A DNA stretch of 64,000 nt from Bacillota bacterium (GCA_040754315.1 JBFMCS010000049.1:8347-72346), one strand, 5' to 3'. Shown: positions 13,588-64,000, counted from the first letter of the stretch. A program made the numbers and translations. The notes: a model not told the origin generated them from the letters alone.

Positions 13588-13674
13588 TCTCCCGCCGGGA
13601 AAACCCACTCTTTTTAAGGGTGGGATGAAAGGCGGCTTGTATCTTTTCGTGCAACACGCTACAATTTAAGCAGG

Positions 13675-14793
13675 GTGATGGGCATGCTTAAGACATTTAA
13701 GTATCGTATTTACCCAACCCTAAAGCAGATTCGAGAAATGAACCAGTGGCTTGAAGAATGTCGCTGGCTCTACAACCATTTTCTTGAGCAACGCAAGGAC
13801 GCATGCAAGCAAGAGCAAAGAAGCATCAATTACCACGCTCAGGCAACAAGCCTTCCTGAACTTAAGGGGCAGCGTCCTTCTCTTAACGGCGTTCACTCCC
13901 AAGTCTTGCAGAATGTTGCTGTTCGCATCGACCTTGCTTTCAAAGCCTTTTTCCGCAGAGTTAAAGCTGGAGAAAACCCTGGCTATCCCCGCTTTCGAGG
14001 CAAGGGCCGGTATGATAGCTTCACCTTCCCACAAAGCGGCTTTAACCTTGACGGTGATATGCTCCGGCTTTCCAAGATCGGCAGCATTAAGGTTGTTCTT
14101 CACAGGCCGATCGAAGGCAACCTGAAAATATGCACCGTCAAACGCTCTGGCACCGGCAAATGGTACGTGACGCTTTCCGTTAAATACGAGCAAGATTTTT
14201 TGCCGAAAAACGATCATGCTGTCGGTGTTGACGTTGGCCTTAATTCTTTTGCCACGCTTTCGACCGGTGAACAGACAGAAGCTCCGAAGTTCTTTCGCAA
14301 AGAGGAAAAAGAACTGGCCAAAGCACAGCGCAAATTGTCGAAGGCTGAGAAAGGAACGCCGGAACGGAAGAAATGCCGGAAGGTTGTTGCTAGGGTACAC
14401 GAACGTATTGCATGGAAGCGTCAAAATTTTGCTCACCAACTTTCACGTAAAATAGTCAACCGGTTCGGCATGATTGCCGTTGAGGATATACATGTCAACC
14501 GCATGCTTCACAACCACTGTTTGGCTAAAAGCTTGTCTGACACGGCTTGGTCGGGGTTCTTCCAACAGTTGGCGTACAAGGCAGCGTGTGCCGGTCGTCA
14601 ATTTGTGGCCGTTAACCCCGCCTATACCTCCCAGGACTGCTCCGGTTGTGGACACCGGCAGAAAATGCCACTGTCAGAGAGGGTTTTCAATTGTCCATGT
14701 TGCGGTATGGTTTTAGATCGTGACCACAATGCCGCGCTAAACATTTTGGGTTTGGGAAGGCAAGCCCTGGAGATTTCTCCTAAAAGCCCCTGA
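13675..14793 (+). mobile_element. tnpB: IS200/IS605-family TnpB (OrfB; RuvC-like RNA-guided nuclease), IS1341-like, no tnpA
   Basis: N-terminal MLKTFKYRIYPT motif, RuvC catalytic residues and a C-terminal zinc finger CSGCGH...CPCCG. Lower GC than the flanks. A 9-bp stem hairpin lies at the stop. Confidence 0.85.
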
Positions 14794-24295: not shown

Positions 24296-24311
24296 TGGTA
24301 CGGTTCTTGCA
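24296..24311 (+). promoter_or_regulatory. Sigma-54 (-24/-12) promoter TGGTAC-N5-TTGCA upstream of the MttB-family gene
   Basis: TGGTACGGTTCTTGCA matches the TGGCAC-N5-TTGCW consensus at 15 of 16 positions. It sits about 45 nt upstream of the MttB start. Confidence 0.6.
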
Positions 24312-24355: not shown

Positions 24356-25807
24356 GTGCCCTTTGTGGGCCTAAGGGGTATGCCAGGCGGCAGTTACAGG
24401 GTCTTGAGCGACGGGGACATCCAGAAGATCCACGATTGTTCCATGAAACTCTTCGAGGAGGTAGGCATCGCTGTACACAACAAGAGGGCCCTGGAGCTCT
24501 TCCACCAGCACGGGGCGGAGGTGGACTGGAAGAGGCGAGTCTTCTTCGCCTCAAGGGACTGGGTGATGTCCAAGGTTGGGATGGCCCCCTCCTCCATTAC
24601 CCTGTGTGGCAGGGAGGAAGCCCAAGACCTGGTGATCGAGGACACCAAGACCTACCTGGGAACAGGCGGCACCGCCCTGAACGTGCTGGACATGGAGACC
24701 CACAAGAGGAGGCCCTCCACCCTGCAGGATATAAGGGATGCGGCTCGCCTGGTCGATCACCTGGAGAACATCCACTTCTTTGTGCTGCCCTTGTACCCTC
24801 ACGACGTGCCCGAAGAGAAGGTGGATGTCAACCGTTTCTGGGCTGGGCTTAGCCACACATCCAAACATGTGATGGGCGGGGTCTATACGAAGGAGGGGGT
24901 CCAGGATACCATCCGCATGGCAGAGGTCATCGCCGGCGGCCGGGAGGCACTTCGGAAGAGGCCTTTCATCTCCATGATCACCTGCGTGGTCAGCCCCCTG
25001 AAGATCGACGACACCTATGGGGAGCTTTTGATGACAGTAGCTGAGCAGGGAATACCCCTGGCCATCCCCACGGAGCCCCTGGCAGGATCAACCTCCCCTG
25101 TGACGCTGGCAGGGAATGTCGCCCAGCTCAACACAGAGGCCCTGGCCGGTCTCATCCTGGCCCAGCTGGTCAATCCTGGTACCCCAGTCCTTTACGGGTC
25201 TGTTGCCACCATCAACGATATGCGGCAGATGGCCTACCTTTCCGGGGCTGTTGAGATGGGGCTCATTAACGCTGCTGCCGCGCAGATGGCTCAGTTCTAC
25301 CGGGTCCCCTTCTACGCTACGGCGGGTATGTCCGATTCCAAGCTGCCGGACATCCAGTCAGGTTACGAAAGGGCCATGACCGCCGTCATGGTAGCCCTGG
25401 CGGGCGCCAACTACATCCACGATGCCGCAGGCCTTCTGGAATTCGCTATGACTGTCTCCTTTGAGCAGTACGTGATAGATAACGACATCATCGGCATGGT
25501 CATGAGGGCGGTGAAGGGCATCGATGTTAATGACGAGACCCTGGCCTTTGACGTCATGAAGAAGGTGGGTCCAGGGGGCAACTTCATGTCTGAGAAGCAC
25601 ACGGTCCGGTACATGCGGAAGGAGTTCTTCTACCCCTGCCTGGCAGACCGGAACAACCGGGATGCGTGGGAGGCTATGGGGGCCAGGGACGCCTGCCGCA
25701 GGGCCAGGAAGGAGGCCAGGAGAATACTGGCTACGCACAAGCCGTTGCCTGTGGCGGACGAGGCGGTCAAGGAGATCAGGTCCAGTATCGACGGGATCGT
25801 CGTCTGA
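24356..25807 (+). CDS. MttB-superfamily corrinoid-dependent methyltransferase (trimethylamine methyltransferase-like, non-pyrrolysine)
   Basis: Full-length MttB-family sequence (DIQKIHD ... TIM-barrel body) with no in-frame amber codon. Alternative ATG at 24380. Confidence 0.8.
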   Translation: MPFVGLRGMPGGSYRVLSDGDIQKIHDCSMKLFEEVGIAVHNKRALELFHQHGAEVDWKRRVFFASRDWVMSKVGMAPSSITLCGREEAQDLVIEDTKTYLGTGGTALNVLDMETHKRRPSTLQDIRDAARLVDHLENIHFFVLPLYPHDVPEEKVDVNRFWAGLSHTSKHVMGGVYTKEGVQDTIRMAEVIAGGREALRKRPFISMITCVVSPLKIDDTYGELLMTVAEQGIPLAIPTEPLAGSTSPVTLAGNVAQLNTEALAGLILAQLVNPGTPVLYGSVATINDMRQMAYLSGAVEMGLINAAAAQMAQFYRVPFYATAGMSDSKLPDIQSGYERAMTAVMVALAGANYIHDAAGLLEFAMTVSFEQYVIDNDIIGMVMRAVKGIDVNDETLAFDVMKKVGPGGNFMSEKHTVRYMRKEFFYPCLADRNNRDAWEAMGARDACRRARKEARRILATHKPLPVADEAVKEIRSSIDGIVV

Positions 25808-40949: not shown

Positions 40950-42434
40950 GTGCGCCTGCGCACGCAGCACTCAGCCATCTTGGTGACGATACTTGTGATG
41001 TGCGCCTGGGCACTGGCCGGGTGTGCCCAGGACCCCAGGGCCGGTGAACCCAGGGGGAGGCCTGGGGGGCTCGCCAGCGAATGGTGCCTCATCCAGGAGG
41101 CCATGGGCCTTGAGGTTCAGGATGCCCGTATCCTGGAGATGCAGCTGTCCGTGGACTATGATACCCAAGACATAAAGGCTGCTGCCATCGCCTTCTACGT
41201 TCCAGGTGATGGCGGCAGCGTTCACTTCGCCCAGAGGCTCCTGGGGGAGGCAGCCTACCGGATCACCTCCTCCCGGCCCTCGTACCCCATGGATCCTGGG
41301 GAAATGGTACCATTGGATGATCTCATCGCCCAGGTCGACCTTGCCGGCCTTGATGCCCTGGTATACCACGCCGGTGAGTACTCCTGGCTTGAGGTGTCCC
41401 TAGTGGAGGAGACCGGTCAGGTCTTGGGGATTGAGCCTGGCAGGACCTGGTTCCTCCTTGAGGACGGGATAGCCGAAGAACTCAAAGACACCGAGGTGGC
41501 CGTGGTCTCGGGGCGGCTGGTGTACCTCTACACCGCCCCGGTAGGGGATCGTTCCGGAGACACCGGCCAGCCGAAGCGCCGGGGCTATCTCCTTACTGGG
41601 CTGGGGGGTACGGTGTCGAGGGTGACGTTGGAACCCCCGGACCTCCAGGCGGGGGAGGAGTGGATCACCAGCAAGCTCGCGGACCTGGACGGCGACGGGT
41701 TAGGTGAAGTCATCCACCTCGTGGGTACGAGGAGCGAGGAACACCTTCCCGCGCCTGACCGGAAGTGGCTCCTGGTAGGGAGCGGCAGCGAGGCGCTCAG
41801 GCTGGAGGTGCCCAGTGGGGACACTCAGTATGGGACCCACTTCGAGCTCAGGGATCTAACCGGGGACGGCTGCCCGGAGATGCTCTTCTACGAGTACATA
41901 GGGGGCAGCGGCAACATAGTGGACCTGAACGTGTTCTCCCTTAGGAACGGAGGGCTTTGGCCCCTTTTTGTCGCGGCCGACCATCACAATATCCCCGGGA
42001 TCCATGTGGAGTACCTTGGGGATAACATGGCCAGCCTGTACCTGCCTTCACTGGGCCTGGCGTGGGTGTTTCCCCTTTGCGGATCCTACCAGGGAAGCAT
42101 TGTCTCCCCGCAGTTTCACCCAGACTGGGTTGACCCCTTCTCCGACTACGACCTGGTGGACCTGGATGGTGACGGTGCGGTTGAGATCATCGGCTACCAG
42201 AGGGTGTGCGGCTCCGCCCACGTGGACATCATCGCCGATCTCCGCCAGGTGTTCTCCTGGAATGGGGAGGCCTTTGTGCTCCAGGATGTGCTCCTAAGCA
42301 CCCCCGGCTGGGGAGGGGAGTTGATCGAGCCCTTCGTTCACCCGCCGGTGAGGTTTGTGTTGCCCGGGACCACCGGTACCAGTATAATGTTTGTAAGAGG
42401 ACAACCGAATACAGGCCCCACGGGAACCTCGTGA
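40950..42434 (+). CDS. Lipoprotein with FG-GAP/VCBS-like DxDGDG repeats
   Basis: Signal peptide LVMCAWALAGC. Repeated DLDGDG / DLTGDG motifs. Confidence 0.5.
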   Translation: MRLRTQHSAILVTILVMCAWALAGCAQDPRAGEPRGRPGGLASEWCLIQEAMGLEVQDARILEMQLSVDYDTQDIKAAAIAFYVPGDGGSVHFAQRLLGEAAYRITSSRPSYPMDPGEMVPLDDLIAQVDLAGLDALVYHAGEYSWLEVSLVEETGQVLGIEPGRTWFLLEDGIAEELKDTEVAVVSGRLVYLYTAPVGDRSGDTGQPKRRGYLLTGLGGTVSRVTLEPPDLQAGEEWITSKLADLDGDGLGEVIHLVGTRSEEHLPAPDRKWLLVGSGSEALRLEVPSGDTQYGTHFELRDLTGDGCPEMLFYEYIGGSGNIVDLNVFSLRNGGLWPLFVAADHHNIPGIHVEYLGDNMASLYLPSLGLAWVFPLCGSYQGSIVSPQFHPDWVDPFSDYDLVDLDGDGAVEIIGYQRVCGSAHVDIIADLRQVFSWNGEAFVLQDVLLSTPGWGGELIEPFVHPPVRFVLPGTTGTSIMFVRGQPNTGPTGTS

Positions 42435-42660
42435 GAGGGAAGAGGGAATCGGGTGCGAATCCCGAGCGGTCCCGCCACTGTAACCGGGGAGAGAGCCCGC
42501 GCTGATCCACTGTCCTGGATGGGATGGGAAGGAGCGGGTCATCCATGAGCCGGAAGCCAGGAGACCTGCCTGTGGCGGTGCGTACGATACCCCTTCGATG
42601 GAAAGAGCGGTGTACGTGAGGCTTAGTTGATAGGGCCTTCTACCATAGGGGTAGAAGGCC
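42435..42660 (+). ncRNA. Cobalamin riboswitch (aptamer about 42440-42580) with expression-platform terminator hairpin (42624-42651)
   Basis: Conserved GGTGCGAATCC ... GCCACTG elements and B12-box GCCGGAAGCCAGGAGACCTGCC. 10-bp hairpin GGCCTTCTAC-cataggg-GTAGAAGGCC followed by TTGAAGTTT. Confidence 0.85.
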
Positions 42661-42686
42661 TTGAAGTTTCCCGGGGAGGTGGGAGA

Positions 42687-44090
42687 ATGCTGAGGGCTCC
42701 ACGACTGGTAGTGGCAGGGACCCACAGCGGGGTGGGCAAGACCACGGTGGCGACAGGCCTCATGGCGGCGCTCTCCAGGAGGGGCCACGCCGTCCAGGGC
42801 TTCAAGGTTGGCCCCGACTACATTGATCCTGCGTTTCACGCCTCTGCCAGCGGGAGTCCATCACGGAACCTGGACCCGTGGCTAACTGGAGAGGACGGCG
42901 TCCTGGGGATCTTCACCTCCCGGGCCAAGGAGATCTCGGTGATCGAAGGGGTGATGGGACTGTTCGATGGCGGTCCCCGGCCAGAGGGCGGTTCAGCCCT
43001 GGCACCCGGCGGGGGATGGGGGAGTACAGCCCATGTGGCCATGATGCTCAAGGCCCCTGTGTTACTTGTCCTAGACGCAGCAGCCCTGGCCAGGAGCGCA
43101 GCTGCAATGGTCAAAGGCTACCTAACCTTCGAGCCTGGCCTTCATGTCTCGGGGTGTATTGTAAACAAGGTATCCGGCCCGGGCCACATCAGGTCCCTGA
43201 AGCGCCACATAGAGGGGGAGGCAGGGGTGCCAGTGGTGGGGGCGATCCCGGCCAGCGCGGGGCTACGACTGCCCGAACGCCACCTGGGCCTCGTGCCAGC
43301 CAGGGAGACGGAGGCCCTGGCCGAGGTCATCCACCACATGGGCCAGGTTATTGAGGAACACGTTGACCTGGAAGCCCTGTGGGACCTGGCCAGTGCCGCG
43401 CCCCCGCTGCCCAGGCCAGCACTTCCGCAACCCTCCAGGTTCCCCGGGGTACGAGTAGGAGTGGCCATGGACCAGGCATTTCACTTCTACTACCAGGATG
43501 CCCTGGACCTCTTGGAGAGCATGGGGGCGGAGATTCGCCTCTTTAGCCCGCTGGAGGACCGGTCGCTGCCTGCCGTGGATGGCATCATCATCGGAGGAGG
43601 CTTTCCCGAGGTGTTCCTGGAGCCCCTTTCCGCCAACAAAGGGCTCATGGAGGAGATTGTGTCCAGGGTCAAGGAGGGTATGCCCCTCTACGCCGAGTGT
43701 GGTGGCCTCATGTACCTGTGCCGTGAGGTAGATGACCTCGACGGCCGGTCCTATCCCATGGCCGGCCTGGTGCCCGCCCGGGCTGTCATGACCCAGGGCT
43801 TGGCGGGGTTCGGCTACGTCACCGCTCTTCTTGCCAGGGACTCCATACTCGGCGGCGCTGGTGATAAGGTCCGGGGGCATGAGTTTCACTACTCACGCCT
43901 GGTGCCCCTGGGAGACCTGGGGGTACAGCCCTATCTAGTATCCTGGGGCGTGGACGAAGAGGGATGGCCCGAGGGGTACCAGTTCCGGAACGCCCTGTGC
44001 TCCTATGTTCACATTCATCTCTTGGGAAACCCCCGGGCGGCCCAGCGCTTCCTGGGTGCCTGCATGAGGTTTCGGATGGGTGAGGCCTAG
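42687..44090 (+). CDS. cbiA: Cobyrinate a,c-diamide synthase
   Basis: VAGTHSGVGKTTV P-loop and a C-terminal glutamine amidotransferase domain. ATG at 42687 after GGAGGTGGGAG. Confidence 0.85.
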   Translation: MLRAPRLVVAGTHSGVGKTTVATGLMAALSRRGHAVQGFKVGPDYIDPAFHASASGSPSRNLDPWLTGEDGVLGIFTSRAKEISVIEGVMGLFDGGPRPEGGSALAPGGGWGSTAHVAMMLKAPVLLVLDAAALARSAAAMVKGYLTFEPGLHVSGCIVNKVSGPGHIRSLKRHIEGEAGVPVVGAIPASAGLRLPERHLGLVPARETEALAEVIHHMGQVIEEHVDLEALWDLASAAPPLPRPALPQPSRFPGVRVGVAMDQAFHFYYQDALDLLESMGAEIRLFSPLEDRSLPAVDGIIIGGGFPEVFLEPLSANKGLMEEIVSRVKEGMPLYAECGGLMYLCREVDDLDGRSYPMAGLVPARAVMTQGLAGFGYVTALLARDSILGGAGDKVRGHEFHYSRLVPLGDLGVQPYLVSWGVDEEGWPEGYQFRNALCSYVHIHLLGNPRAAQRFLGACMRFRMGEA

Positions 44091-44142
44091 GGGCGTGAAT
44101 TCCAGCGGCCGGCGTGAGCCCCGCCGCGAAAGGGGAAGCGGC

Positions 44143-44664
44143 ATGGACAGGCAGGGTCTCGTGATGATATTCACTGGGGACGGCAAGGGCAAGACCACCG
44201 CCGCGGTGGGGCTTGGGGTGAGGGCAGCCGGGCATGACAGGCGGGTCCTGATGATACAGTTCCTGAAGGGCTCAGGCAGGGACTACGGAGAGGCGAGGGC
44301 GCTGCAGTCACTCCCATCATTCAGGGTGGCTAGGTATGGGCAAGGCTTTGTCCTCGGTGATCCCGATGAGGCTCACATCCGCAGGGCTCGGGAGGGGCTA
44401 GCCAGGGCCCGGGAGGCCATGGCTGCCAGGGAGTGCGACCTTCTCATCCTGGATGAGATCAATGTGGCCATCGCATGCAGGCTGGTGAGGCTGGAGGAGG
44501 TCCTGGACCTCCTGGCGGGAAGGCCCCAGGACATGGATGTGGTACTGACTGGAAGAGGAGCACCAAGGGCCCTCATGGACCAGGCCCACATGGTCAGCGA
44601 TGTCCAGGAGGTGAAGCACCACTACAGGACGGGGGTCCAGGCGCAGGCAGGGGTGGAGTTCTGA
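44143..44664 (+). CDS. cobO: Cob(I)yrinic acid a,c-diamide adenosyltransferase (CobO/BtuR)
   Basis: FTGDGKGKTTAA P-loop and IQFLKG motif. Confidence 0.85.
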   Translation: MDRQGLVMIFTGDGKGKTTAAVGLGVRAAGHDRRVLMIQFLKGSGRDYGEARALQSLPSFRVARYGQGFVLGDPDEAHIRRAREGLARAREAMAARECDLLILDEINVAIACRLVRLEEVLDLLAGRPQDMDVVLTGRGAPRALMDQAHMVSDVQEVKHHYRTGVQAQAGVEF

Positions 44665-53755: not shown

Positions 53756-54658
53756 GTGAGGTTTGTCATCCTGTTACTTCTACTGTCCCTTGCCGGGTGC
53801 CAGCGGCATCCCGCTGTTGAGCAGCCCTGGGAACCGCCCCCTGGGGAACAGGTATCTAGACCCATGAGCGCTAGCCTTGAGCCCGGAGACCTGGAGCCAG
53901 GGGGGTACACCGTTGTCCTCATCTTTAACGCAGAGGCGCCTGTACGGGTGATCCTGGATCTTCCGGATGCCCCGGAACCCAAGGTGTTCTTGCACGGCTC
54001 AAGGGGCATAGCCCTGGTTCCCGCGGGCTCCAGCACCGAGCCCGGCGACTACAAGGTGAGGGTGGTCTCCGGCTCCGGCACAAGTAGCCTGTGTGTGAGT
54101 GTGCGCCAGCGTAACTTCCCCACGGAACACCTGGCGGTTTCCTCAAGCCTCGCCTCCCTCAGGGACCCGGGCCTCTTTGAGGAGGACCACCATCACACAG
54201 CCGGGGCCCGGGCCGCCAGTGACGAGAGGCCTCTGTGGGAGGGCAACTTCCTCATGCCCGTCGAGGGCCCCATCACATCCGGTTTTGGCCTGGTGAGGTT
54301 CGTCAACGGTGTGCCCTCAGGCCACCACTCGGGGATCGACATAGCCGCGCCCAGAGGCACCCCTGTGATCGCCGCCAACTCGGGGGTGACTGTGATGGCC
54401 AGGGAACTCAACGTCTCGGGGAATACCATCATCATCGACCACGGCTTGAACGTATTCTCCGCCTACTCCCACCTGGACGAGATCCTGGTGGAAAGGGGAG
54501 ATGTGGTCAAGAAGGGCAGGGTGATCGGAAGGGCTGGGTCAACTGGCTTCTCCACCGGCTCCCACCTGCACTGGACGGTTTCAGTGGGGCCCGTGTTCGT
54601 GGACCCCCTCCTCGCGGTAAAGGAGGGCTTCGTGGTGCCTTGGCCACTACTGGATTAG
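53756..54658 (+). CDS. M23-family metallopeptidase lipoprotein
   Basis: Lipobox LLSLAGC. HxxxD ... HLH motifs (GIDIAAPRGTPV ... GSHLHW). Confidence 0.8.
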   Translation: MRFVILLLLLSLAGCQRHPAVEQPWEPPPGEQVSRPMSASLEPGDLEPGGYTVVLIFNAEAPVRVILDLPDAPEPKVFLHGSRGIALVPAGSSTEPGDYKVRVVSGSGTSSLCVSVRQRNFPTEHLAVSSSLASLRDPGLFEEDHHHTAGARAASDERPLWEGNFLMPVEGPITSGFGLVRFVNGVPSGHHSGIDIAAPRGTPVIAANSGVTVMARELNVSGNTIIIDHGLNVFSAYSHLDEILVERGDVVKKGRVIGRAGSTGFSTGSHLHWTVSVGPVFVDPLLAVKEGFVVPWPLLD

Positions 54659-55501
54659 CCCCTCCTGGCGGGCAGCCCTCCCGGCGGTGTCGTGCAGGGG
54701 GATGGGGAGGAGGGCTCCGGTCTCCTCCAGGAAGGCCTCGGCCAGCAAGGACACCACTTCCCCGTTAAGATCCCTATGGCCCACTATGATCAGGGGCAGC
54801 CGCAGTGTCCTGCCATCCGTTGGAAGACGATAAGTTTCCGCAGGTACACTTGCCTTTGCCAGGAACGGGTTTGCTTCTTTGAGCCTCTGGATGGCAGTGT
54901 GCTCCAGCTCGACCCAAGCGAAACCCTCATCCTCCAGGAGGAGCCCTACGCCCGGCGCGCCTTGGGGCAGGAAGAACATGGCGGCATCCAGAGTGCCCTC
55001 CTGCAGGCCTTTAATGGACTGGGAGGGCGTCTTGTCCAGGCACTGGAAACTATCCAACCTGATGCCCGAGGCGTTAAGCACCCCAGCCAGGTAGCGCCGC
55101 CCGTCTCCGGCCTCCAGGCCCACCCGGAGCCCGTCCAGGGCCCGCAGCGACTCAAGAGGCCCCGCTGTGGCCTGCAGGATGTGAAGGTCAAGGAAGCCCG
55201 CAATGGCGATGCCTCTCAGCCTCCGGAAGGAGGGCTCGCTCCTGTAGAGGTCCCAGGTCACGTCCGCCGGGAGCAGCGCCAGTTGAGCCTGGCCTCTGGC
55301 CACCATTCCCGCCGCCTGGCGCGGTTCCCCTGCGAGATACACCTCCGAGGGGATCCCGGACTGCGCCAGTATGTCCAGCACCTGCCTCTCGAAACCCTCG
55401 TATCCCTCCATGCCGCAGGAGGCCAGTGTCACCCCGGGGGTGGGCCCTCCCAGGCAGCCAGAGGAAAGCAGGGCCACAAGCACAAGAACCAGGGTACGCA
55501 T
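54647..55501 (-). CDS. Periplasmic substrate-binding lipoprotein (TAXI / PhnD-like superfamily)
   Basis: Lipobox LLSSGC and a two-lobed type-II SBP-like body. Adjacent to DUF1850. Confidence 0.5.
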   Translation of the reverse strand: MRTLVLVLVALLSSGCLGGPTPGVTLASCGMEGYEGFERQVLDILAQSGIPSEVYLAGEPRQAAGMVARGQAQLALLPADVTWDLYRSEPSFRRLRGIAIAGFLDLHILQATAGPLESLRALDGLRVGLEAGDGRRYLAGVLNASGIRLDSFQCLDKTPSQSIKGLQEGTLDAAMFFLPQGAPGVGLLLEDEGFAWVELEHTAIQRLKEANPFLAKASVPAETYRLPTDGRTLRLPLIIVGHRDLNGEVVSLLAEAFLEETGALLPIPLHDTAGRAARQEGLIQ

Positions 55502-55574
55502 GCGGTCACTCCCTCCCGGCATCGTCTTGGGGCTGGGAGGGCCCCTGATCACTCCTATGCCCTGATCTTGGCGG

Positions 55575-56075
55575 TTAGCCCTGCCTTGGCCTGTCCAGGA
55601 GGAATTCGTGCCAGGGGATCCTCCTGGTACGCACGCTGACCAGTGCCAGGGTTCCCTCCTGGGGTCCTAGCGGTACGGACATGCTGCCCATGGTGAACCG
55701 GTGCTTGGTGAAGTGCTGGCTCCTGAAGAGGATCTCCTCCATGGCCTCGGCCTCCACCCGGAGGATCATGGTGCCCTCGGTGATGGAGTGGTTCTCCCAG
55801 GGTGATATGGCCTCCAGGCCAGCCCCAAAGGAAGGGTAGGAGGTCTCAAGGGGGCGGATGGATCCATCCGTCTCTATCCGGAAGGTCCCGGCAACTTCGA
55901 TGCCCTCGACGGAGTGGAGGAAGGAAACCTGGAAGGTGCCGCCCGCACTCGCCCTGGCCCGGGCCGCCAGGTTTCCCTCGCAGTCTATCTCAAGGACCAT
56001 GATCCTTGGGGAAAGGGCGAGATAAAGGACGGTGGCCCCCGCCAGGAGCCCAAGGCACCACCGCCTCACTCTCAT
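55575..56075 (-). CDS. DUF1850-domain protein (TAXI-TRAP associated)
   Basis: N-terminal TM helix. SFGAGLE-type motif typical of DUF1850. Confidence 0.5.
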   Translation of the reverse strand: MRVRRWCLGLLAGATVLYLALSPRIMVLEIDCEGNLAARARASAGGTFQVSFLHSVEGIEVAGTFRIETDGSIRPLETSYPSFGAGLEAISPWENHSITEGTMILRVEAEAMEEILFRSQHFTKHRFTMGSMSVPLGPQEGTLALVSVRTRRIPWHEFLLDRPRQG

Positions 56076-56547
56076 GAACTGGCCAGCGCCAGCTGGCTCT
56101 TTGCCCTGCGTTACTGCCCAAAGCAGATCAGGGCAAAGATCCCTAGGCCAATGATATCAGTCCATATGTCTGGCTTGACCAGGGCTAGTGCCACCCCTGC
56201 CAGGATTATGCGCTCCCACCAGTGAGTCTTTACCACCAGGTGCCCTTGGACAAAGGCTGAGAAGGCAGCGTGACGTCTGTTCCATCGCCCGCAGCATTGT
56301 CAAGTCATTCCCCTTCAGTGCTACAAAAGCCATTTCCTGTGCCCTCTCACCTCCCCCCTGGACGTATACCTCCCGCCAACGTCCTTCAAGCCGGGGGGCT
56401 CTATGCCCGTGGGGAATGGCCTTGGGAGAATTCACTGGTGATTTGGTAGGATTCTCGGTGATTGAGGCACAACCAGACTGCAATGGGCAGGGGAAGAGAC
56501 GAGCGCCCCCAGCAGGCTCCTGGAGGCGCACTGGTGAACGGCGTCCG

Positions 56548-57999
56548 TTACTTCCTCGCTTTGGCCACGGCCCTGTTAACGATCAAATTGAGTTCCGCCC
56601 GGAGCCTCTCGTCCAGGATATCCGGCCGGTGCTTGCCCAGTACTTCATCAACACGTTCGGCGGCTCTTTGACCCAGGGTCTTGCTGCCTTGCGCCACCCA
56701 GTTGTCATAGATCCCGCGTTCGAAGAGATCTGGGTAGTAGTGCTGGCGGAAGTTCCTGAAGGTGTGATCCAGGTGGATGTACTGCTCTTTGTGGGCTATT
56801 TCATTGATCAGGTCCATTGCCAGGGTCTCGTCGTTCACCTCAAGTTCTTTCGCATAGGTTTTTATCCAGCGGATGATCTCCGTACATATGGCAAGCATCT
56901 GGAAGGAGTAGGTGAGGCCGGACTCCAGGTAGCCCACGTCGTGGACGATGCCGCCGCCAGACATGGACTCCGCCATCAGCGTGAGGGCCGCTTCCGCCGC
57001 CGCCTGCTGATCGGCGGTCTTGGCTTCGGACGCCCCGCCGATGGAGAATACAGGGAGTTGGTAGTAGTGACCCATGGCCACCATCATGCTCCGGGCATCA
57101 GGCTGGCAGTAAGGGGCCACCGTTGTGCGGAGGTCCATGGGGGCTCCACCCCAGCCGGGGATTATGATGGGTGCCCCTTCCCGTTTGAGCTGGGAGATAA
57201 CTATCCCGGCCAGGACACCGGCAAGTGTCAGGGCGACAGACCCGGGGACGGTTACGGGCCCGGTAACGCCGCTGCAGACGTCGGGCGCGTAGATGGCAGG
57301 TAGGCCCTTGTCCGCCAGGAACAGCAGTTTTTGAAGGGCTTCCTCGTTGTGGCGAAGGCCCGTGGTGACATTCACGTAGCCCACCACGTTGGGCCTGCGG
57401 CGAAGACTGTCCTCTCCACCAGCTACGATCTGGGCCATTTCCACGACATCGACGCAGCCCTCGTACTCATATGTCACGAAGAGGATGGGCTTCTTTGTAT
57501 ATGATAGCAGGACCTCCATCTGGTAACGGTCTGCCAGGGTCATGTCGACGTCCGCCGGCAGTACCATGGACATGACGAAGTCTATTTCGGGTAGCCCGTC
57601 ACAGAGGGTGACCCCCTCCACGACATCCTGGATCTTAGGTTTCCGGCGCTGGCTCGTGTGATGGTCCAGGATGTGCAGGCAGTCAGATCCAGGGCCAAAG
57701 AACACCTGGTGTCCCTCCACGGGCATTGCCAGTTCCCCGTCACGGTTGAAGAGAGCCACGCGTTTCGGCACGGTCACCAGTGCCTTCTCCACCAGGCCGG
57801 ACCGGATCCTCACGAGGTTCCCGTCCACGTCCACTCCGGCGGAAGCCAATAGCTCGATGGCTTCCCGAGAGTAAAGGAGCACACCGACGCGCTCCAGGAT
57901 CTCCAGGGAAGCCCAGTGGATCTTCTGGCACTGGGCCTCGGACATGTAGCTGAAGTGAGGCGACTTGAAGGTTTTGTCGTTCATGAGAAGATTGGTCAT
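56548..57999 (-). CDS. MttB-superfamily corrinoid-dependent methyltransferase, second paralog (non-pyrrolysine)
   Basis: SEAQCQKIHWASLEILERVG N-terminus and a full TIM-barrel body without an amber codon. ATG at 57999 after GGGAGGTAAAG; the track ORF starts at 58047. Confidence 0.8.
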   Translation of the reverse strand: MTNLLMNDKTFKSPHFSYMSEAQCQKIHWASLEILERVGVLLYSREAIELLASAGVDVDGNLVRIRSGLVEKALVTVPKRVALFNRDGELAMPVEGHQVFFGPGSDCLHILDHHTSQRRKPKIQDVVEGVTLCDGLPEIDFVMSMVLPADVDMTLADRYQMEVLLSYTKKPILFVTYEYEGCVDVVEMAQIVAGGEDSLRRRPNVVGYVNVTTGLRHNEEALQKLLFLADKGLPAIYAPDVCSGVTGPVTVPGSVALTLAGVLAGIVISQLKREGAPIIIPGWGGAPMDLRTTVAPYCQPDARSMMVAMGHYYQLPVFSIGGASEAKTADQQAAAEAALTLMAESMSGGGIVHDVGYLESGLTYSFQMLAICTEIIRWIKTYAKELEVNDETLAMDLINEIAHKEQYIHLDHTFRNFRQHYYPDLFERGIYDNWVAQGSKTLGQRAAERVDEVLGKHRPDILDERLRAELNLIVNRAVAKARK

Positions 58000-58198
58000 T
58001 GGCTTTACCTCCCTGTGCACGCTCCGCCCATCCACGCGGGAGAGCACACCCTTTGTTGGGCCCCTGCCGTGACAGGGGATTTCGTCCCTGTTTCCGTTTC
58101 GACTCCCATCGACACCCCTGTGGGTGAAGGGGTCTCAGTTCGTCCCTGGACCGCACCGGCTACGGTAACACGCCACGGCCCTCCGGGTACTGCCCGGC

Positions 58199-60268
58199 CT
58201 ACCGGGTGACTGACTCCACGTCCTTGAGCCTTTCCAATGGTATGTGGCAGAGAATACGGTGGCCCAATTCGGATACTTGCTCCGGCGGCTCGCTGGTCCG
58301 GCAGATGTCCCCGAGATACCTGGGGCACCGGGTGTGAAAATGGCAGCCGGAGGGCGGCTCCACAGCGCTGGGCACGGTACCGCTCAGGCGGATGCGCCGT
58401 TGCTCTACACTGGGATCCGGTATCGGAACCGCTGATAGGAGGGCCTCGGTATAGGGGTGGTATGGCGGGGAGTAAATGGCATCCGCCGGTCCCACCTCGC
58501 AAATACGGCCCAGGTACATGACGGCCACATGGTCGGAAATGAACCGGACCACGCTCAGGTCATGTGCGATGAACACGATGGTGATGCCGTGTTCACGCTG
58601 GAGATCCACCAGGAGGTTGAGGATGGCCGCCTGCACCGAAACATCCAGTGCTGACAAGGGTTCATCACATATAACCACCTCCGGGTTCGCGGCAATGGCC
58701 CTGGCCACCGCCACCCGCTGCGCCTCTCCCCCACTCAGCTGGTGGGGGTAACGATCGAAGTAGCCCTCGTCCAGCCGCACGGCCTCCAGGAGCCTGGAGA
58801 CCTCGCCTCGCACCTGGGAAGCCGGGACGAGCTTGAAGCGGCGCAGGGAACGGCCTATCTGGTAACCGACGGTGAATGAAGGGTTGAGGGTGGAATCCGG
58901 GTTCTGGAACACCATCTGGAGCCTTCTGATGACGCGAAGATCCCTCTTGGCCAAAGGGGCGCTGATGTCCACACCCAGGAGTCTCATCTGCCCGGCAGAG
59001 GCTGGCTCAAGCCCGGCGATGGTCCGGGCGAGGGTGCTCTTGCCACACCCGGATTCACCCACGATGCCCAGAGTGCGGCCAGAGGATACCTGGAAACTCA
59101 CGCCATCCACCGCCTTGACATGGCGATGCGGCGCGAATCCCATCATGCTCAGGGCCGAGCGTCTCTCCTGGCGGTAGTAGGTCTTGAGATCCTGCACCTC
59201 CAGGACGGCCTCGTGTTCCCTGGCGGCAGGAGAGGCAGGAGAATAGGAGACACCGGGTGTGGCCCGCGCACCCCCATGGTCCAGATCATCCGCCAGGTGA
59301 CAGCTGACGAACCTCCCGGGGGCCAGCTCGCGTAGAACCGGCCGGCTATCCATGCACACCATGGCAGCGTAGTTGCATCGCGGCGCGAATATGCAGCCGG
59401 GCGGGATCTGCTCCGGCGAAGGTACATAGCCCGCTATGGGGTGCAGCTGGCTGGTCTCCTTGGTTCGCCCCAGTCTTGGCAGGCAACGGATGAGGCCGTT
59501 CGTGTAGGGGTGCAGGGGTTTCAGGAAAATGTCCTGAACTGGGGAGATTTCCACCATCTCACCAGCGTACATGACCCCCACAGAATCACAAAGCCTTGCC
59601 ACCACCCCTAGATCGTGGGTGATGTACACTATCGCGGCGTCCATTTCCCTTCGGAGTTCATCCACCAGGTCAAGCACGGTGGCCTCCACCGTAACGTCCA
59701 GGGCGGTGGTGGGTTCGTCCATGAGAAGAAGCCTAGGATTGCCGAGGAGCGCCATGGCAATGACCACGCGCTGCTGCTGGCCGCCGGAGAGCTGGTGAGG
59801 GTACCGCCGCATCAGCGCATCAGGGTCGGGCAGGTAGACACGTTTCACCATCTCGACGCATCGCCGAGCAGCCTCACGCCGTTTCATTCGCCCGTGAACC
59901 TCCAGGACCTCCTGGAGCTGCTCGCCGATGGTCAGAGAGGGGTTCAGCGCCTGGGTGGGATCCTGGTACACCATGGCCATCTTGTTACCCCTGAGACGGC
60001 GTAGCTCCTTAGGAGGAAGCCGCGTGAGGTCGTTCCCCTCAAACCAAATCTCGCCCCCGGCTATCCGGCCGTTTCGTCCCAGGAAGTTCACGATGCTGAA
60101 GGCCACGGAGGTCTTGCCGCACCCTGACTCGCCAACGACGCCGAAAACCTCTCCCAGGTGGACAGACAGACTCACATTGCGGACGGCGTTGACCTCACCC
60201 CTTCGCGTTGTGTAGGAAACGGCCAGGTCCTTGACTTTTAAGACCGGAACGCCGGGAGACCCGTTCAT
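58199..60268 (-). CDS. Peptide/nickel-type ABC transporter ATP-binding protein with two fused ABC domains (DppD-DppF fusion, GsiA/YejF-like)
   Basis: Two Walker A motifs (GESGCGKT, GESGCGKS), two LSGG signatures, and an oligopeptide C-terminal extension. Confidence 0.85.
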   Translation of the reverse strand: MNGSPGVPVLKVKDLAVSYTTRRGEVNAVRNVSLSVHLGEVFGVVGESGCGKTSVAFSIVNFLGRNGRIAGGEIWFEGNDLTRLPPKELRRLRGNKMAMVYQDPTQALNPSLTIGEQLQEVLEVHGRMKRREAARRCVEMVKRVYLPDPDALMRRYPHQLSGGQQQRVVIAMALLGNPRLLLMDEPTTALDVTVEATVLDLVDELRREMDAAIVYITHDLGVVARLCDSVGVMYAGEMVEISPVQDIFLKPLHPYTNGLIRCLPRLGRTKETSQLHPIAGYVPSPEQIPPGCIFAPRCNYAAMVCMDSRPVLRELAPGRFVSCHLADDLDHGGARATPGVSYSPASPAAREHEAVLEVQDLKTYYRQERRSALSMMGFAPHRHVKAVDGVSFQVSSGRTLGIVGESGCGKSTLARTIAGLEPASAGQMRLLGVDISAPLAKRDLRVIRRLQMVFQNPDSTLNPSFTVGYQIGRSLRRFKLVPASQVRGEVSRLLEAVRLDEGYFDRYPHQLSGGEAQRVAVARAIAANPEVVICDEPLSALDVSVQAAILNLLVDLQREHGITIVFIAHDLSVVRFISDHVAVMYLGRICEVGPADAIYSPPYHPYTEALLSAVPIPDPSVEQRRIRLSGTVPSAVEPPSGCHFHTRCPRYLGDICRTSEPPEQVSELGHRILCHIPLERLKDVESVTR

Positions 60269-60280
60269 CCGTCAGTCCTC

Positions 60281-61147
60281 CTACGCTTTCTCACGGATAC
60301 CGTCGACCAGCAGATTCAGGCCCACCACAAACGTGGAGATGGAAAGGGTGGGCCACAGCACGGCCCAGGGGTTCAGCCAGATCTGCCTGCGAGCCCGGGC
60401 CACCATGCTCCCCCAGTCTGGGTAAGGGGGCGGCAAACCCAGGCCCAAGAACCCAAGCGTGCCGATGGCGATGACGGCGTACCCTACCCTCAGCATTGCA
60501 TCCACCAGCACCGGGCCCATGGTATTCAGCAGGATCTCGGCCACCATGATATAAAGGGGGCTCTCTCCCCTGAGCTTGGCCGCCGCCACATACTCGCGGG
60601 TCCTCACATCCAGAGTCAGGCTGCGCACCAGCTTGGCAATGCCTGGCGCCCCGGCCAGGACGATGGCCAAGACAACGTTGGTGGCGGAAGGCCCCACCGC
60701 GGCTATGATGACCAGGTAGATCAGGATGGGCGGGAAGGCCATCATGGCATCGACCACCCGCATCACGACTTCATCTGTCCATCCTCCGTAGTACCCAGAT
60801 GCCAGGCCCATTGCCGCGCCTGCCATAAGGGACAGCAAGACAGACAGGGGCGCCAGGAGCAGTACGGGGCGTGCCCCGTACAGGAGCCGGGACAGGAGGT
60901 CGCGACCCAGGTCGTCCGTGCCCAGGGGGTGAGCGGCGCTGGGCCCTGTGTTGATGGCATGTATGTCTTGTTCCAGTGGATCATAGGGAGCCAGCACTGG
61001 GGCGAACACCGCCCCGAGGACCCAGAAGGCAATCAGGCAGAAGCCAACTGTGGCCGTCCAAGAGGAGAAGACGACCCTCACGGCCGCCCGGAATCGGGCG
61101 ACTGCACCCTTGTCACGGCCCCTAGCGATCATACCTGCTTTCACCAC
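60281..61147 (-). CDS. ABC transporter permease (DppC/OppC-like)
   Basis: BPD_transp_1 core with N-terminal OppC-type TM. Confidence 0.8.
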   Translation of the reverse strand: MVKAGMIARGRDKGAVARFRAAVRVVFSSWTATVGFCLIAFWVLGAVFAPVLAPYDPLEQDIHAINTGPSAAHPLGTDDLGRDLLSRLLYGARPVLLLAPLSVLLSLMAGAAMGLASGYYGGWTDEVVMRVVDAMMAFPPILIYLVIIAAVGPSATNVVLAIVLAGAPGIAKLVRSLTLDVRTREYVAAAKLRGESPLYIMVAEILLNTMGPVLVDAMLRVGYAVIAIGTLGFLGLGLPPPYPDWGSMVARARRQIWLNPWAVLWPTLSISTFVVGLNLLVDGIREKA

Positions 61148-61181
61148 AGCCCTCCACCACCTATGGAAGGTTTACACATGG

Positions 61182-62489
61182 TCATGAGTAACGGATCCTT
61201 GGGTTAAGCAGTGTGTAGATCAGATCGGCCGCCAGCTGTGTGCCCACAGCCAGGGCGACCATGATCATCGTGGCGGCTTGCATGGCAAACACATCCTTGT
61301 AGAGGGATGCCTGGTAGATATACATCCCGATACCAGGAAAACCAAAAATGGCCTCTACAACCACGATGCCCCCGATGAGCCAGTTGACATGGTACATTAT
61401 TACGGTGATAGGCGCCATGAGAGCGTTTCTGAGGGCGTGCTTCATTATGACGGTCTTCTGGGGCAATCCCTTCAAGATGGCCGTCCTGACATAGCCCGTG
61501 CCCATAACCTCAATCATGCTGGCTCGGGTAATCCTGAGAACGTACCCGAGATCGATCAAGGCCAAGGTCAGTACAGGCAGGATCAGCATCTTGGGGTCGG
61601 CGAATATGGCGTCCGGCCTGTCGAAGACCGTGGCCCCCGGCAGGAGCCCGAGCCAGGACGAAAACACCAGGATCAGCAGGAGGCCTGTGGCGAATTCGGG
61701 ACTCACCGTGGTCATCAGGCCACCGATGGAAAGGACCCGGTCAATCCAACGGCTTCGGTTGACACCGGCTATGATCCCCAGGACCAGGCCGATGGGCATC
61801 ACGATGACGAAGGCTATGGCCGCCAGGACCAGCGAGTTTAGGAAGCGGCGAGGCAGGGCATCCGCTATGGGGCGTCCTGTCTGGATCGACACGCCAGGGT
61901 CTCCTCGGAGAATGCCTTTCTGTAGCGGGATGTACTCAACGCCTCCGCCGGACTGGGATACCCAGAAGCCTGCGGTCTTGGCGCGGACCCAGACCGTGAC
62001 GTCATCCCCCCGGATCCAGTGGACGGCACGATTATGCCCGTCCACGCCCCAGAAGCTTTCGACTCCTGTGTTGCCGTCCGGTTGCCACCTGTCGTTGTCC
62101 GGCTCCTCCCGGGTATTGCCATCCGGTAACAGGGTCTGCCTGACGAGGTCCTGGCCTTCCAGTCGCCACCTGACGAGCGAGCCGTCGGTTTCCACGGCCC
62201 ACCATTCCCGGAACCCCGCATCCGACCGCACAAGCCTCAAGGGCAGCCCGATCTTCCGGGCAGCCTGCCAGTCGTTCCCTATGATGGAGGCCAGGTACCG
62301 GCTGTACAAGGGCTGATTTAGGCCCAGCTGGGCGTGAAAGGAGGCTTCCTGTTCCGGGGTAGCGAAGGCGCCCAGTATGTTCCGGGCCACATTCCCGGGC
62401 GCCACCTCAGCCATGAGGAAGATCACAACGGACACCACCAGCATTGTGACAAACATGCTGACAACTCGCCTCAGGAGAAACTTGACCAT
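61182..62489 (-). CDS. ABC transporter permease (DppB/OppB-like) with an about 120-aa periplasmic insertion
   Basis: DppB-like N-terminus and C-terminal EAA core. A W/D/G-rich insertion follows TM1. Confidence 0.75.
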   Translation of the reverse strand: MVKFLLRRVVSMFVTMLVVSVVIFLMAEVAPGNVARNILGAFATPEQEASFHAQLGLNQPLYSRYLASIIGNDWQAARKIGLPLRLVRSDAGFREWWAVETDGSLVRWRLEGQDLVRQTLLPDGNTREEPDNDRWQPDGNTGVESFWGVDGHNRAVHWIRGDDVTVWVRAKTAGFWVSQSGGGVEYIPLQKGILRGDPGVSIQTGRPIADALPRRFLNSLVLAAIAFVIVMPIGLVLGIIAGVNRSRWIDRVLSIGGLMTTVSPEFATGLLLILVFSSWLGLLPGATVFDRPDAIFADPKMLILPVLTLALIDLGYVLRITRASMIEVMGTGYVRTAILKGLPQKTVIMKHALRNALMAPITVIMYHVNWLIGGIVVVEAIFGFPGIGMYIYQASLYKDVFAMQAATMIMVALAVGTQLAADLIYTLLNPRIRYS

Positions 62490-62556
62490 TCTGGAAGCCC
62501 CTTATCAGGGGGAGGCCGCGAGAACGCCCTCCCCCCCCGTTATAGTGCCGCTCCGG

Positions 62557-63999
62557 CTAGGCCTTTTGGAGCCAGACGTCGTGGTACTGGCAGTACTGGC
62601 TGGGATGAGCCTGAAGGTTCTCCACGCCCTTGCGAAATATGGCGAAGGCATCGGACCAGTACGCGATCCCGATGGACCCTCGGTCCCGCTGTATTTCCTG
62701 GAGCTTGTGTATGATCCTGCGCCTTTCGTCCACGTCCAGGGTCATCTCTGCTTCGTCAAGCAGCGTCTGGAACTCCTGGTCCACCCAGCGAGTCTCGTTC
62801 CAGGGCACAGGTGTGCCGTCGGCCTCAGCGGTGTAAGCCAGCCGGAGGCACATGGTTCCCAGCGGGCGGTGGCCCCACCAGGTTATGCCCAGGTCCACCT
62901 CTGTCCACTGGTCCCAGTAGACAGAAGTGGGGACGGGCTCGATCTGGATGCGGAACCCGGCCGCGGCGGCGTCTTGCTGAAGCACCTCAGCGTAAGCCAC
63001 CTGTTCGGGATAGCCACTGGCTACCGTGAGCTTCAGATCGATGCCGTCTGGATAGCCCGCCTCCGCCAGGAGCGCCTTGGCCCGCGCGGTGTCGAAGGGC
63101 AGAGGCGGAAGGTCATAGTACTCAGGGTGGGACGGGGCAACGTGGGCATCATTGGCCACCACACCCTCGCCGAAGTAGGTAAGGGACAGTATCTTCTCCC
63201 GGTCCTGGCAAAGCTTCAGCGCCAGCCGTACCCGGTTGTCGTCATAGGGCTGCCGGTCCACACGCATTCTCAACACTCTGGTGCTAGCGGTGGTCACCTG
63301 CTGGATCACGGCACCCGGGAAATCCTTGAGGGCCCGGTAACCGTCAATATCCACCAGGTCGCCGAAGTCTATGTGGTCGATCCGGCCCGCCTGGAAGGCC
63401 GTGACGTGGGGGGCCACCTCATCGCCCAGATCGATGAAGATTACCTCATCCAGATAGGGGAGGGCCTGGCCGTCCGCGCCCGTCTGCCAGTAACCGTCCC
63501 GCCTCTTGAGAACGACTCGTTCTCCTTCCAGCCATTCCTGGATGGTGAAGGGCCCAGTACCAACGGGGGCCTTCAAGACATCCCCTTCGAAACTCCTGTG
63601 GAGGACGAAATTGGGGTAGTGGAAAAGGTGCTCGGGCACTCCGATTTGAGCGTTGGCCAGATGCAGTTTGACCTCGTAGTCATTGACCTTCTCAATGTTG
63701 CCGGGGCTCAGGTAGGACATGAGGCCCAGGGTCGAGGACCCCACCTCTGGATCCAGCCATTGCTTCAAGGTGAACACCACGTCATCGGCAGTGAATTCCT
63801 GCCCGTTGTTCCACCTTATGCCTTTTTTTAAGTATAGCCCCCATGTCTTCAGGTCTTCGCTGGCTTCCCACCTCTCGAGCAGGTACGGGTGGGTGATGTT
63901 GGCTTCATCCGTGTAGCTTAGGTACTCGAAAACATTCCGCAGCATATTGGAGGGGGCCACCCAGGAGAGGCGGGCCGGGTGGTCCACTCGGCTGACCAC
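62557..63999 (-). CDS. ABC transporter substrate-binding protein, family 5 (DppA/OppA-like), N-terminus beyond window
   Basis: SBP_bac_5 body. The ORF is still open at the window edge. Confidence 0.75.
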   Translation of the reverse strand: MVSRVDHPARLSWVAPSNMLRNVFEYLSYTDEANITHPYLLERWEASEDLKTWGLYLKKGIRWNNGQEFTADDVVFTLKQWLDPEVGSSTLGLMSYLSPGNIEKVNDYEVKLHLANAQIGVPEHLFHYPNFVLHRSFEGDVLKAPVGTGPFTIQEWLEGERVVLKRRDGYWQTGADGQALPYLDEVIFIDLGDEVAPHVTAFQAGRIDHIDFGDLVDIDGYRALKDFPGAVIQQVTTASTRVLRMRVDRQPYDDNRVRLALKLCQDREKILSLTYFGEGVVANDAHVAPSHPEYYDLPPLPFDTARAKALLAEAGYPDGIDLKLTVASGYPEQVAYAEVLQQDAAAAGFRIQIEPVPTSVYWDQWTEVDLGITWWGHRPLGTMCLRLAYTAEADGTPVPWNETRWVDQEFQTLLDEAEMTLDVDERRRIIHKLQEIQRDRGSIGIAYWSDAFAIFRKGVENLQAHPSQYCQYHDVWLQKA

Positions 64000-64000
64000 G

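Follow-up and report, generated by a model that had tools for sequence, protein, structure and literature searches.

Introduction

Genes of the MttB superfamily are very abundant in anaerobes and, to our knowledge, the methyltransferase substrates established so far are few: trimethylamine, glycine betaine, proline betaine, carnitine, gamma-butyrobetaine and phosphocholine. The present analysis dealt with a gene of this superfamily, mttB2, carried on a 64,000-nt stretch of DNA from a Bacillota bacterium (JBFMCS010000049.1:8347-72346), hereafter the window, the numbering of which is used throughout. The closest described systems are those of MtgB of Desulfitobacterium hafniense (PDB 2QNE/9YCE) and of MtpB, MtcB, MtyB and MthB of Eubacterium limosum, which share with the present one a non-pyrrolysine MttB enzyme and an adjacent uptake system, the corrinoid protein having only candidate counterparts here. 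Characterised MttB systems use BCCT/OpuD carriers (PMC9768040). The mttB2 gene, in contrast, follows the genes of a peptide-type (PepT/Dpp) ATP-binding cassette (ABC) importer, a pairing with MttB enzymes for which full-text literature searches found no description, and it is itself followed by a DUF1850 gene and a gene for a TAXI-family solute-binding protein (SBP).

The explanation considered probable is that two unrelated units adjoin here through a deletion: an import-and-demethylate operon, which is an uncharacterised variant of operons for the corrinoid-dependent use of methylamines, and what is left of the 3' part of a TAXI-TRAP transport operon.

Gene Content of the Region

Gene calls were taken from the open reading frame (ORF) listing and profile searches, and gave seven co-directional genes in a row on the minus strand between 54647 and 64000, encoding SBP5, DppB, DppC, a fused ATPase, MttB2, DUF1850 and TAXI. 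The features and coordinates of an earlier reading made from the sequence alone (the sequence-only reading) were all borne out; as it had stated, mttB2 has no in-frame stop and runs in the same direction as the ABC genes, about 200 nt downstream of them. The features are:

62557 to beyond 64000, minus strand: family-5 (cluster C) SBP of the ABC importer (Pfam SBP_bac_5, 253 bits), the N-terminal ~71 residues of which are removed by the end of the window
61182-62489, minus strand: DppB-like permease, 435 amino acids (aa) (BPD_transp_1_N and BPD_transp_1)
60281-61147, minus strand: DppC-like permease (OppC_N and BPD_transp_1)
58199-60268, minus strand: fused DppD-DppF double ATPase, 689 aa (two ABC_tran and two oligo_HPY domains; NF008453, 607 bits)
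58000-58198, minus strand: spacer between the ATPase gene and mttB2, 199 nt
56548-57999, minus strand: MttB2, a methyltransferase of the MttB superfamily without pyrrolysine, whose gene closes the module (Pfam MTTB, 299 bits)
56503-56529, minus strand: GC-rich 10-bp hairpin, 20 nt past the mttB2 stop codon, without a U-tract
56267-56547, minus strand: non-coding stretch of 281 nt, from mttB2 to the junction
56076-56266, minus strand: stump of a pseudogene for a fused TRAP (DctQM) permease, of which it keeps the final 63 codons, interrupted by a premature TAA at 56111-56113
56111-56236, minus strand: hydrophobic frame of 41 aa (VKTHWW...CFGQ) inside the permease stump
55575-56075, minus strand: DUF1850 gene, full length in the window (Pfam DUF1850, 49.6 bits)
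54647-55498, minus strand: TAXI-family solute-binding lipoprotein, 284 aa, with a lipobox (NMT1_3, 42 bits)

The same region was found in a sister strain on L012, a 108-kb JGI metagenome contig that represents an independent assembly. In comparison with this strain, the importer genes and mttB2 were under purifying selection, with ratios of nonsynonymous to synonymous substitution (dN/dS) of 0.10-0.37; the lowest and highest of these values are also those of mttB2 (0.10) and of the gene for DppC (0.37), which is 99% identical to the L012 copy.

MttB2 and Its Substrate Site

MttB2 covers almost the whole of its Pfam family (residues 22-492 against positions 21-494 of 500 in PF06253, where the cut-off is 25 bits), and a ribosome-binding site, GGGAGG, lies 8 nt before its ATG at 57999. 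Pyl-MttB (PDB 7XCL; TIGR02369) belongs to the same Pfam family, but MttB2 has no UAG codon and carries an alanine, Ala323, at the pyrrolysine position. Assignment as a trimethylamine methyltransferase proper was considered and rejected, as the TIGR02369 score of 344 is below the equivalog cut-off of 525 and there is no in-frame UAG. The match to Pyl-MttB (E 1.5e-42, 149 bits) is weaker than that to MtgB, with which MttB2 shares ~30% identity (E 1e-52 for 2qne).

In MtgB, glycine betaine is held by Y97 and F356 as cation-pi partners and by R312 and H348 as carboxylate ligands, and R312 is stated to be conserved in all characterised members (PMC13080624). In a HMMER alignment, these four positions (Y97/F356/R312/H348) correspond to S105/G361/F318/H353 of MttB2, so that only the histidine is kept. 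The four residues of MttB2 are invariant or nearly so across 30 members of its clade. Because three of the four MtgB binding residues differ, including the replacement of R312 by phenylalanine, MttB2 is, on this alignment, not a glycine betaine enzyme, and its mode of substrate binding probably differs from that of all characterised members. It belongs to an uncharacterised clade of the superfamily, with hundreds of orthologues at 52-75% identity, found in Chloroflexota, Desulfobacterota and Bacillota. Because this clade is tied to a distinctive peptide-type importer, and lacks the carboxylate-binding arginine, it is a lead, amenable to testing, towards a methylated substrate that would be new to the anoxic cycling of carbon and nitrogen.

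The window carries a second member of the superfamily:

24356-25807, plus strand: MttB1, paralogue of MttB2

Alignment of the two paralogues gave an identity of only 29%, and their substrate-binding positions differ: MttB1 has methionine at the pyrrolysine position and, at the position of MtgB R312, a tyrosine, like Pyl-MttB. As their neighbouring genes differ as well, the two are deeply divergent, and the suggestion of the sequence-only reading that they are specialised for different substrates is plausible.

Several minor observations concern MttB1 and its surroundings. The Rfam model PYLIS_3, the pyrrolysine insertion element of mttB, matched positions 25328-25427 (plus strand) inside MttB1 with 65.7 bits against a gathering score of 38, though the ORF is uninterrupted. 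MttB1 may have been 'de-pyrrolysinated' recently; otherwise the model detects conservation of coding sequence. A match to a sigma-54-type promoter with one mismatch, TGGTACGGTTCTTGCA, lies at 24296-24311 (plus strand), 45 nt upstream of MttB1, and the window-wide count for this pattern equalled chance. A gene for a GAF/PAS sigma-54 activator (20450-22261, plus strand) is found 2 kb upstream of MttB1; sigma-54 activators also flank the MttB2-clade loci L004, L007 and L092.

The ABC Importer

The components of a PepT/Dpp-Opp-Nik importer are complete, comprising a family-5 SBP, two BPD_transp_1 permeases (one with OppC_N), and two ABC plus oligo_HPY units. E. coli and M. tuberculosis DppABCDF and OppABCDF (PDB 8Z1V-8Z21, 8WD9, 8J5Q) have the same SBP/permease/oligo_HPY architecture and provide the best structural match of the permease. 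The importer described here differs from them in having fused ATPases, a DppB with an extra beta-domain of ~120 aa, an SBP that is a Tat lipoprotein weakly similar to those of solved structure, and a genomic tie to methyltransferases rather than to peptidases alone. Fused DppDF proteins, of 684-704 aa, were also found among the orthologues.

The full-length SBP orthologue of L012 (P0124) has 551 aa, is 99% identical to the SBP of the window, and has a twin-arginine translocation (Tat)/lipoprotein signal, SRREFLRK...LAGC. A TatA/B/E gene lies between the DppB and DppC orthologues of another contig (L092:13274-13498), matching the twin-arginine signal on the SBP. Among solved SBP structures the best match by sequence had an E value of only 3.6e-34 (121 bits), and the opine binders AgaA and AccA were among the PDB matches. 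Family-5 SBPs are known to bind compounds other than peptides.

The sequence-only reading had noted an unusual loop insertion of 120 aa in DppB, and this proved to be a periplasmic domain, all-beta in structure, that is conserved and modelled with confidence. Some 120 residues without a Pfam match separate the BPD_transp_1_N match from that to BPD_transp_1. In an exhaustive search of representative sequences, ordinary DppB proteins (~315 aa) aligned in two stretches, residues 1-70 and 185-435, and a small set of clusters was colinear with all 435 residues, some with a longer insert and total lengths of 519-704 aa. Every DppB orthologue adjoining an MttB2-clade gene has the insert, and four of these contain ~270 extra, helix-rich residues within it. 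Conserved motifs are NDW, WWA, DGxLxRW, FWGxDxxNxAVxW and YIPLxKGxLRGDPG. An AlphaFold2 model of DppB, built from 46 sequences (mean predicted local distance difference test score 93.4), showed residues ~84-188 as an all-beta domain of ~10 strands, which sits between the N-terminal helices and the core transmembrane bundle (insert at residues ~70-190, window ~61920-62282). When the whole model was compared with the PDB by Foldseek, the best matches were DppB/OppB of E. coli and M. tuberculosis (300-330 aa), with TMq of 0.5-0.6 only; such matches are dominated by the transmembrane core and do not classify the fold of the insert itself. The beta-domain was present in none of the solved DppB/OppB homologues found by this comparison.

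A comparable case is the P2 loop of MalF, which docks the binding protein of MalFGK2: there, too, a loop of an ABC permease contains a folded periplasmic domain of large size. MalF belongs to another permease family and the likeness is by analogy only; the beta-domain of DppB is proposed to contact its binding protein, probably docking it in the same manner.

A further helical insertion of ~270 aa within the beta-domain, rich in alanine, glutamate and leucine, was seen in L025 (4723-6813), L032, L036, L053, P0245 and P0247, giving permeases of ~700 aa. No SBP5 orthologue was detected by tblastn upstream of these genes in L025 and L032.

Conservation of the Importer-Methyltransferase Module

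A scan of species-representative genomes with MttB2 gave 77 loci of MttB2-clade genes (52-75% identity), mostly from Anaerolineae/Chloroflexota, Desulfobacterales and Aminicenantes, the closest being from two Syntrophomonadaceae metagenome-assembled genomes (MAGs). In 14 of the 77 genomes, mostly Anaerolineae/Chloroflexota plus one Thermodesulfobacteriota, tblastn placed orthologous genes for DppB, DppC and DppDF (50-70% identity) upstream, the end of DppDF lying no more than 3.5 kb from mttB. Together with the metagenome contigs L013 and L092 this makes 16 module loci; in three further genome loci the ABC orthologues are nearby but cut or farther away. The distance between DppDF and mttB ranges from ~50 nt to a few kb; where it is large, the spacer contains one or more of the following: a gene for a tandem-CBS protein (~218 aa), a gene for a second MttB paralogue, and one for a proline racemase.

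Contigs with SBP orthologues of 61-99% identity (L012, L013, L091 and L092) all have the order SBP5, DppB (433-435 aa), DppC and fused DppDF, and in three of the four an MttB gene follows directly. The gene order in two of these is:

L013 (SBP 63% identical): GntR, corrinoid protein, C26 amidotransferase, SBP5, DppB (435 aa), DppC, DppDF (704 aa), MttB (59% identical to MttB2), Asp/Glu-racemase-like gene
L092 (SBP 61% identical): CN-hydrolase, SBP5, DppB (433 aa), TatA, DppC, DppDF, MttB (50% identical to MttB2), M20 peptidase, ferredoxin, sigma-54 activator

A metagenome scan with the SBP found 80 loci (54-63% identity). Twenty-five of the SBP-orthologue loci are at least 12 kb long, and of these 20 hold between one and five MttB-family genes and 10 a corrinoid protein.

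This transporter family is strongly and repeatedly tied to MttB-type methyltransferases, and the association of a Dpp-type importer with mttB, first noted in the window, recurs across phyla. The sequence-only reading had called the pairing atypical, which holds in relation to the characterised BCCT/OpuD systems, but in uncultured Chloroflexota and other groups such modules are common and conserved. Pairing of the SBP with MttB2 is frequent, not obligatory. Other MttB2-clade genes sit with distant Dpp systems (25-35% identical), or in cassettes of corrinoid protein, MttB and pterin-binding methyltransferase. The SBP5 genes beside MttB2-clade genes in L006 and L008 were considered as orthologous modules and rejected, as they belong to different Dpp systems, 25-27% identical.

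The tandem-CBS protein, which the window lacks, is free-standing and is encoded between DppDF and the MttB gene or genes of many orthologous loci, namely L024 (7206-7856), L036, L037, L057, L064, L081, L082 and L101. Since the betaine transporter OpuA is regulated by CBS pairs, this protein may be a detachable regulatory subunit.

Transcription Signals

In the 199 nt that separate mttB2 from the ATPase gene, consensus scans and RNA folding detected neither a promoter or sigma-54 site nor a terminator, nor any RNA element of a known kind. Rfam searched at a permissive threshold gave no match between 55900 and 58300, the sigma-54 consensus gave no site near mttB2 (and window-wide counts equal to chance), scans for sigma-70 promoters and terminators gave nothing above shuffled expectation, and the folds of both spacers were no better than those of shuffled sequences. 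The hairpin at 56503-56529 may be a terminator, but it too does not stand out from shuffled sequence (z -0.9). It appears likeliest that the ABC genes and mttB2 are co-transcribed.

A TAXI-TRAP Remnant Downstream of mttB2

TAXI-TRAP transporters consist of a TIGR02122 SBP and a TIGR02123 fused DctQM permease, often with DUF1850, and DUF3394 is a domain of such TRAP fused permeases. The genes downstream of mttB2 share with them the NMT1_3/TAXI match, the DUF1850 gene, a stump corresponding to the TRAP_fused C-terminus, and the gene order of a relative, L011. They differ in that the membrane component is cut to 63 codons with a premature stop, and in that the SBP is a near-orphan scoring below the TIGR02122 cut-off (55 bits against 84; its NMT1_3 score is above the cut-off of 27). 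Its placement in the TAXI family is supported by synteny, the L011 orthologue being encoded with a TRAP permease.

The gap between mttB2 and DUF1850 is 472 nt, and the sequence-only reading had found in it no TRAP membrane component, only the 41-aa frame. A functional permease is indeed lacking, but the frame turned out to be what is left of one: it matches positions 569-605 of the 615 in TIGR02123 (E 6e-4), and DUF3394 (E 2e-4). Residues 297-360 of the L011 permease aligned to the stump by tblastn with 80% identity (E 2e-28). Homology to this permease, in DNA and protein alike, starts abruptly at ~56266 and extends only over the last 63-64 codons, within which a two-base change, CAG to TAA, makes a stop 12 codons before the native one. 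As judged by these alignments, the frame is part of the C-terminal stump of a TRAP permease, ~90% of the gene having been deleted.

The comparison with an intact operon rests on one contig of 2.7 kb, L011, which carries a partial ORF of 360 aa with DctM and DUF3394, followed by DUF1850 (its ATG overlapping the permease stop), TAXI, and a convergent M23 peptidase gene. The TAXI, DUF1850 and M23 genes are 81%, 76% and 88% identical, respectively, to those of the window. Because L011 has these genes in that order beside the same M23 gene, the ancestral arrangement, as read from this comparison, is permease-DUF1850-TAXI, facing the M23 gene.

The sister contig L012 is 98.3% identical to the window along the 7.7 kb that extend from the SBP gene past mttB2 as far as 56312, and 96.8% from DUF1850 onwards. 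Between these two segments it lacks window positions 55937-56311, containing the stump and the first 46 DUF1850 codons, and has ~28 unrelated bases instead; in addition, a deletion of 1 nt frameshifts the rest of DUF1850. The stretch from 56267 to 56547 matched only L012 (96% over the 236 nt retained there), and showed no homology to the L011 TRAP permease, no repeat elsewhere, and no Rfam match.

By these comparisons, the adjacency of mttB2 and TAXI is the scar of a deletion or rearrangement. The sequence-only reading had placed mttB2 as embedded between two transport systems; since the TAXI pair is the remnant of a deleted permease operon, and decays further in L012, mttB2 is not functionally associated with it. 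We infer that the DUF1850 and TAXI genes are non-functional and decaying. The example is a caution, as gene adjacency here reflects a deletion scar and not an operon.

That the TAXI protein might instead be a PhnD phosphonate binder, as the sequence-only reading had allowed, did not hold, as it matches TAXI/NMT1_3 models and its L011 orthologue lies in a TRAP operon beside the DctM/DUF3394 permease. In a word-based search of 5.8 billion proteins it had a single close homologue besides itself (P0122, 81%), and a scan of the genome collection gave no relatives. A literature search found no paper on DUF1850.

Proposed Model and Alternative Explanations

The proposed model comprises two units. Unit A (56548 to beyond 64000, minus strand) would unite four transport components with a methyltransferase. 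The Tat-exported family-5 lipoprotein would capture an N-methylated compound outside the cell and dock to the extra periplasmic beta-domain of DppB; DppC and the fused DppD/F ATPase would then bring the compound into the cell, where MttB2 would move one of its methyl groups onto a corrinoid protein. Unit B (54647-56266) would be the 3' TAXI-TRAP remnant, incapable of transport by itself.

The substrate is, as far as the substrate-site residues can tell, not glycine betaine or trimethylamine. Genes recurring beside those of the MttB2 clade encode members of the proline-racemase family, ornithine cyclodeaminase (OCD)/mu-crystallin, D-amino-acid oxidase, X-Pro dipeptidyl peptidase, M20/C26/CN hydrolases and MmgE/PrpD, and a second MttB paralogue is also among the neighbours in orthologous loci. 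Because of neighbours such as the proline racemases, OCD/mu-crystallins and hydrolases, there is a hint that the substrate may be proline-like or otherwise derived from an amino acid, possibly an amide-linked or peptide-like methylamine. A more specific proposal, that the module imports and demethylates a substrate class new for MttB enzymes (a short peptide bearing N-methyl groups, or an N-methylated derivative of an amino acid, of the proline type or another), and that the beta-domain is a new SBP-docking element, is tentative, and the balance is somewhat against it; it was considered because of the clade's lack of Arg312, the peptide-type importer, and the recurrent amino-acid-type neighbours.

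Some findings count against the two-unit model. Within 54647-64000, no corrinoid partner, methylcobalamin:tetrahydrofolate methyltransferase or activase was found. The 199-nt spacer before mttB2 could hide a promoter missed by simple consensus scans. The module is not universal: L091 (SBP 65% identical) has the four ABC genes followed by a non-MttB gene, and in most metagenome loci the linked MttB genes are from other clades or in other positions. The closest relatives of MttB2 (70-75%, Syntrophomonadaceae) sit behind a PotD-type ABC importer instead, in loci that also carry proline-racemase and OCD/mu-crystallin genes. Lastly, the TAXI ORF has stayed intact in the two strains (dN/dS 0.27), and its product could serve a permease elsewhere in the genome.

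The last of these points leads to an alternative that is rather unlikely, namely that TAXI, perhaps together with DUF1850, is rearranged but not dead, and functions as an orphan binding protein for a TRAP permease encoded elsewhere, or as a sensor. The retention of all 284 codons and of the lipobox in both strains is what such a role would predict, as are the full-length DUF1850 gene of the window and a TAXI dN/dS of 0.21 against L011, but the low value against L011 mostly reflects the time before the deletion, and DUF1850 is truncated and frameshifted in L012. TAXI is also diverging at roughly threefold the rate of its neighbours, its nucleotide identity to L012 being 94.8% as compared with 98-99%. 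A search beyond the locus found no TRAP permease in the 64-kb window or in 21 kb of L012. Between the strains, TAXI dS was 0.118 and dN 0.031, two to six times the values for the genes on either side; the raised dS calls for more than relaxed selection, and may reflect recombination or a local mutational effect.

A second alternative, judged distinctly improbable, is that the ABC genes encode an importer of the ordinary kind, for peptides or nickel, whose adjacency to mttB2 is without functional meaning, with mttB2 transcribed alone and its product fed by another carrier. Dpp/Opp/Nik models give the best scores for each of the four ABC components, and the long spacer, the PotD-type importer of the closest MttB2 relatives, and the gene order of L091 fit such a view. 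Yet the SBP scores of 79-113 bits are far below every peptide or nickel equivalog cut-off (393-1005 for DppA, OppA, NikA and GsiB; 113 against 600 for NikA), and the opine binders among its structural matches illustrate the non-peptide ligands of family-5 SBPs. In addition, orthologous ABC genes stand directly upstream of MttB2-clade genes in the 16 module loci, from different phyla, and four-fifths of the long SBP-orthologue contigs carry MttB genes. Because the transporter family is so repeatedly tied to MttB-type methyltransferases, an ordinary peptide importer is difficult to reconcile with these data.

That the mttB2-stump junction is an artefact of chimeric MAG assembly is scarcely credible, for although the contig is metagenome-assembled and its homology to L011 breaks abruptly at 56266, the stop codon of the stump arose by a two-base change, as expected of real decay, base composition shows no step across the junction, and a chimeric contig is ruled out because two independent assemblies share the mttB2-TAXI adjacency, that of L012 with its own, larger deletion.

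Corrinoid Partners and Wider Context

The two-unit model requires a corrinoid protein, and candidates were found outside the region itself. Upstream of the SBP gene in L012 are an ORF of 253 aa and then an MmgE/PrpD-family gene, and the other strand encodes a PocR/AraC regulator as well as a corrinoid (B12-binding) protein, the latter ~4.4 kb upstream of the SBP gene, a position beyond the end of the window. A second candidate corrinoid protein directly follows MttB1, at ~25.8-26.5 kb. In contrast to the MtgB system, no methyl-tetrahydrofolate methyltransferase is adjacent within the window. The 253-aa ORF directly upstream of the SBP gene (L012:9112-9873) has no Pfam match, and contains the cysteine-rich motifs CAGCG and CRSCGQGPC.

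Elsewhere in the window, a cobalamin riboswitch (42396-42587, plus strand, 115 bits) precedes genes for a CbiA/CobB-type amidase (42627-44090) and a CobA/BtuR corrinoid adenosyltransferase (44080-44664). Because of this arrangement, the organism is taken to regulate its corrinoid supply, which fits the presence of two MttB systems. A low-GC stretch (0.55) at 12604-14793 (plus strand) carries an IS1595-family transposase and an IS605 OrfB/TnpB (Cas12f-like TNB domain), and represents a mobile-element island.

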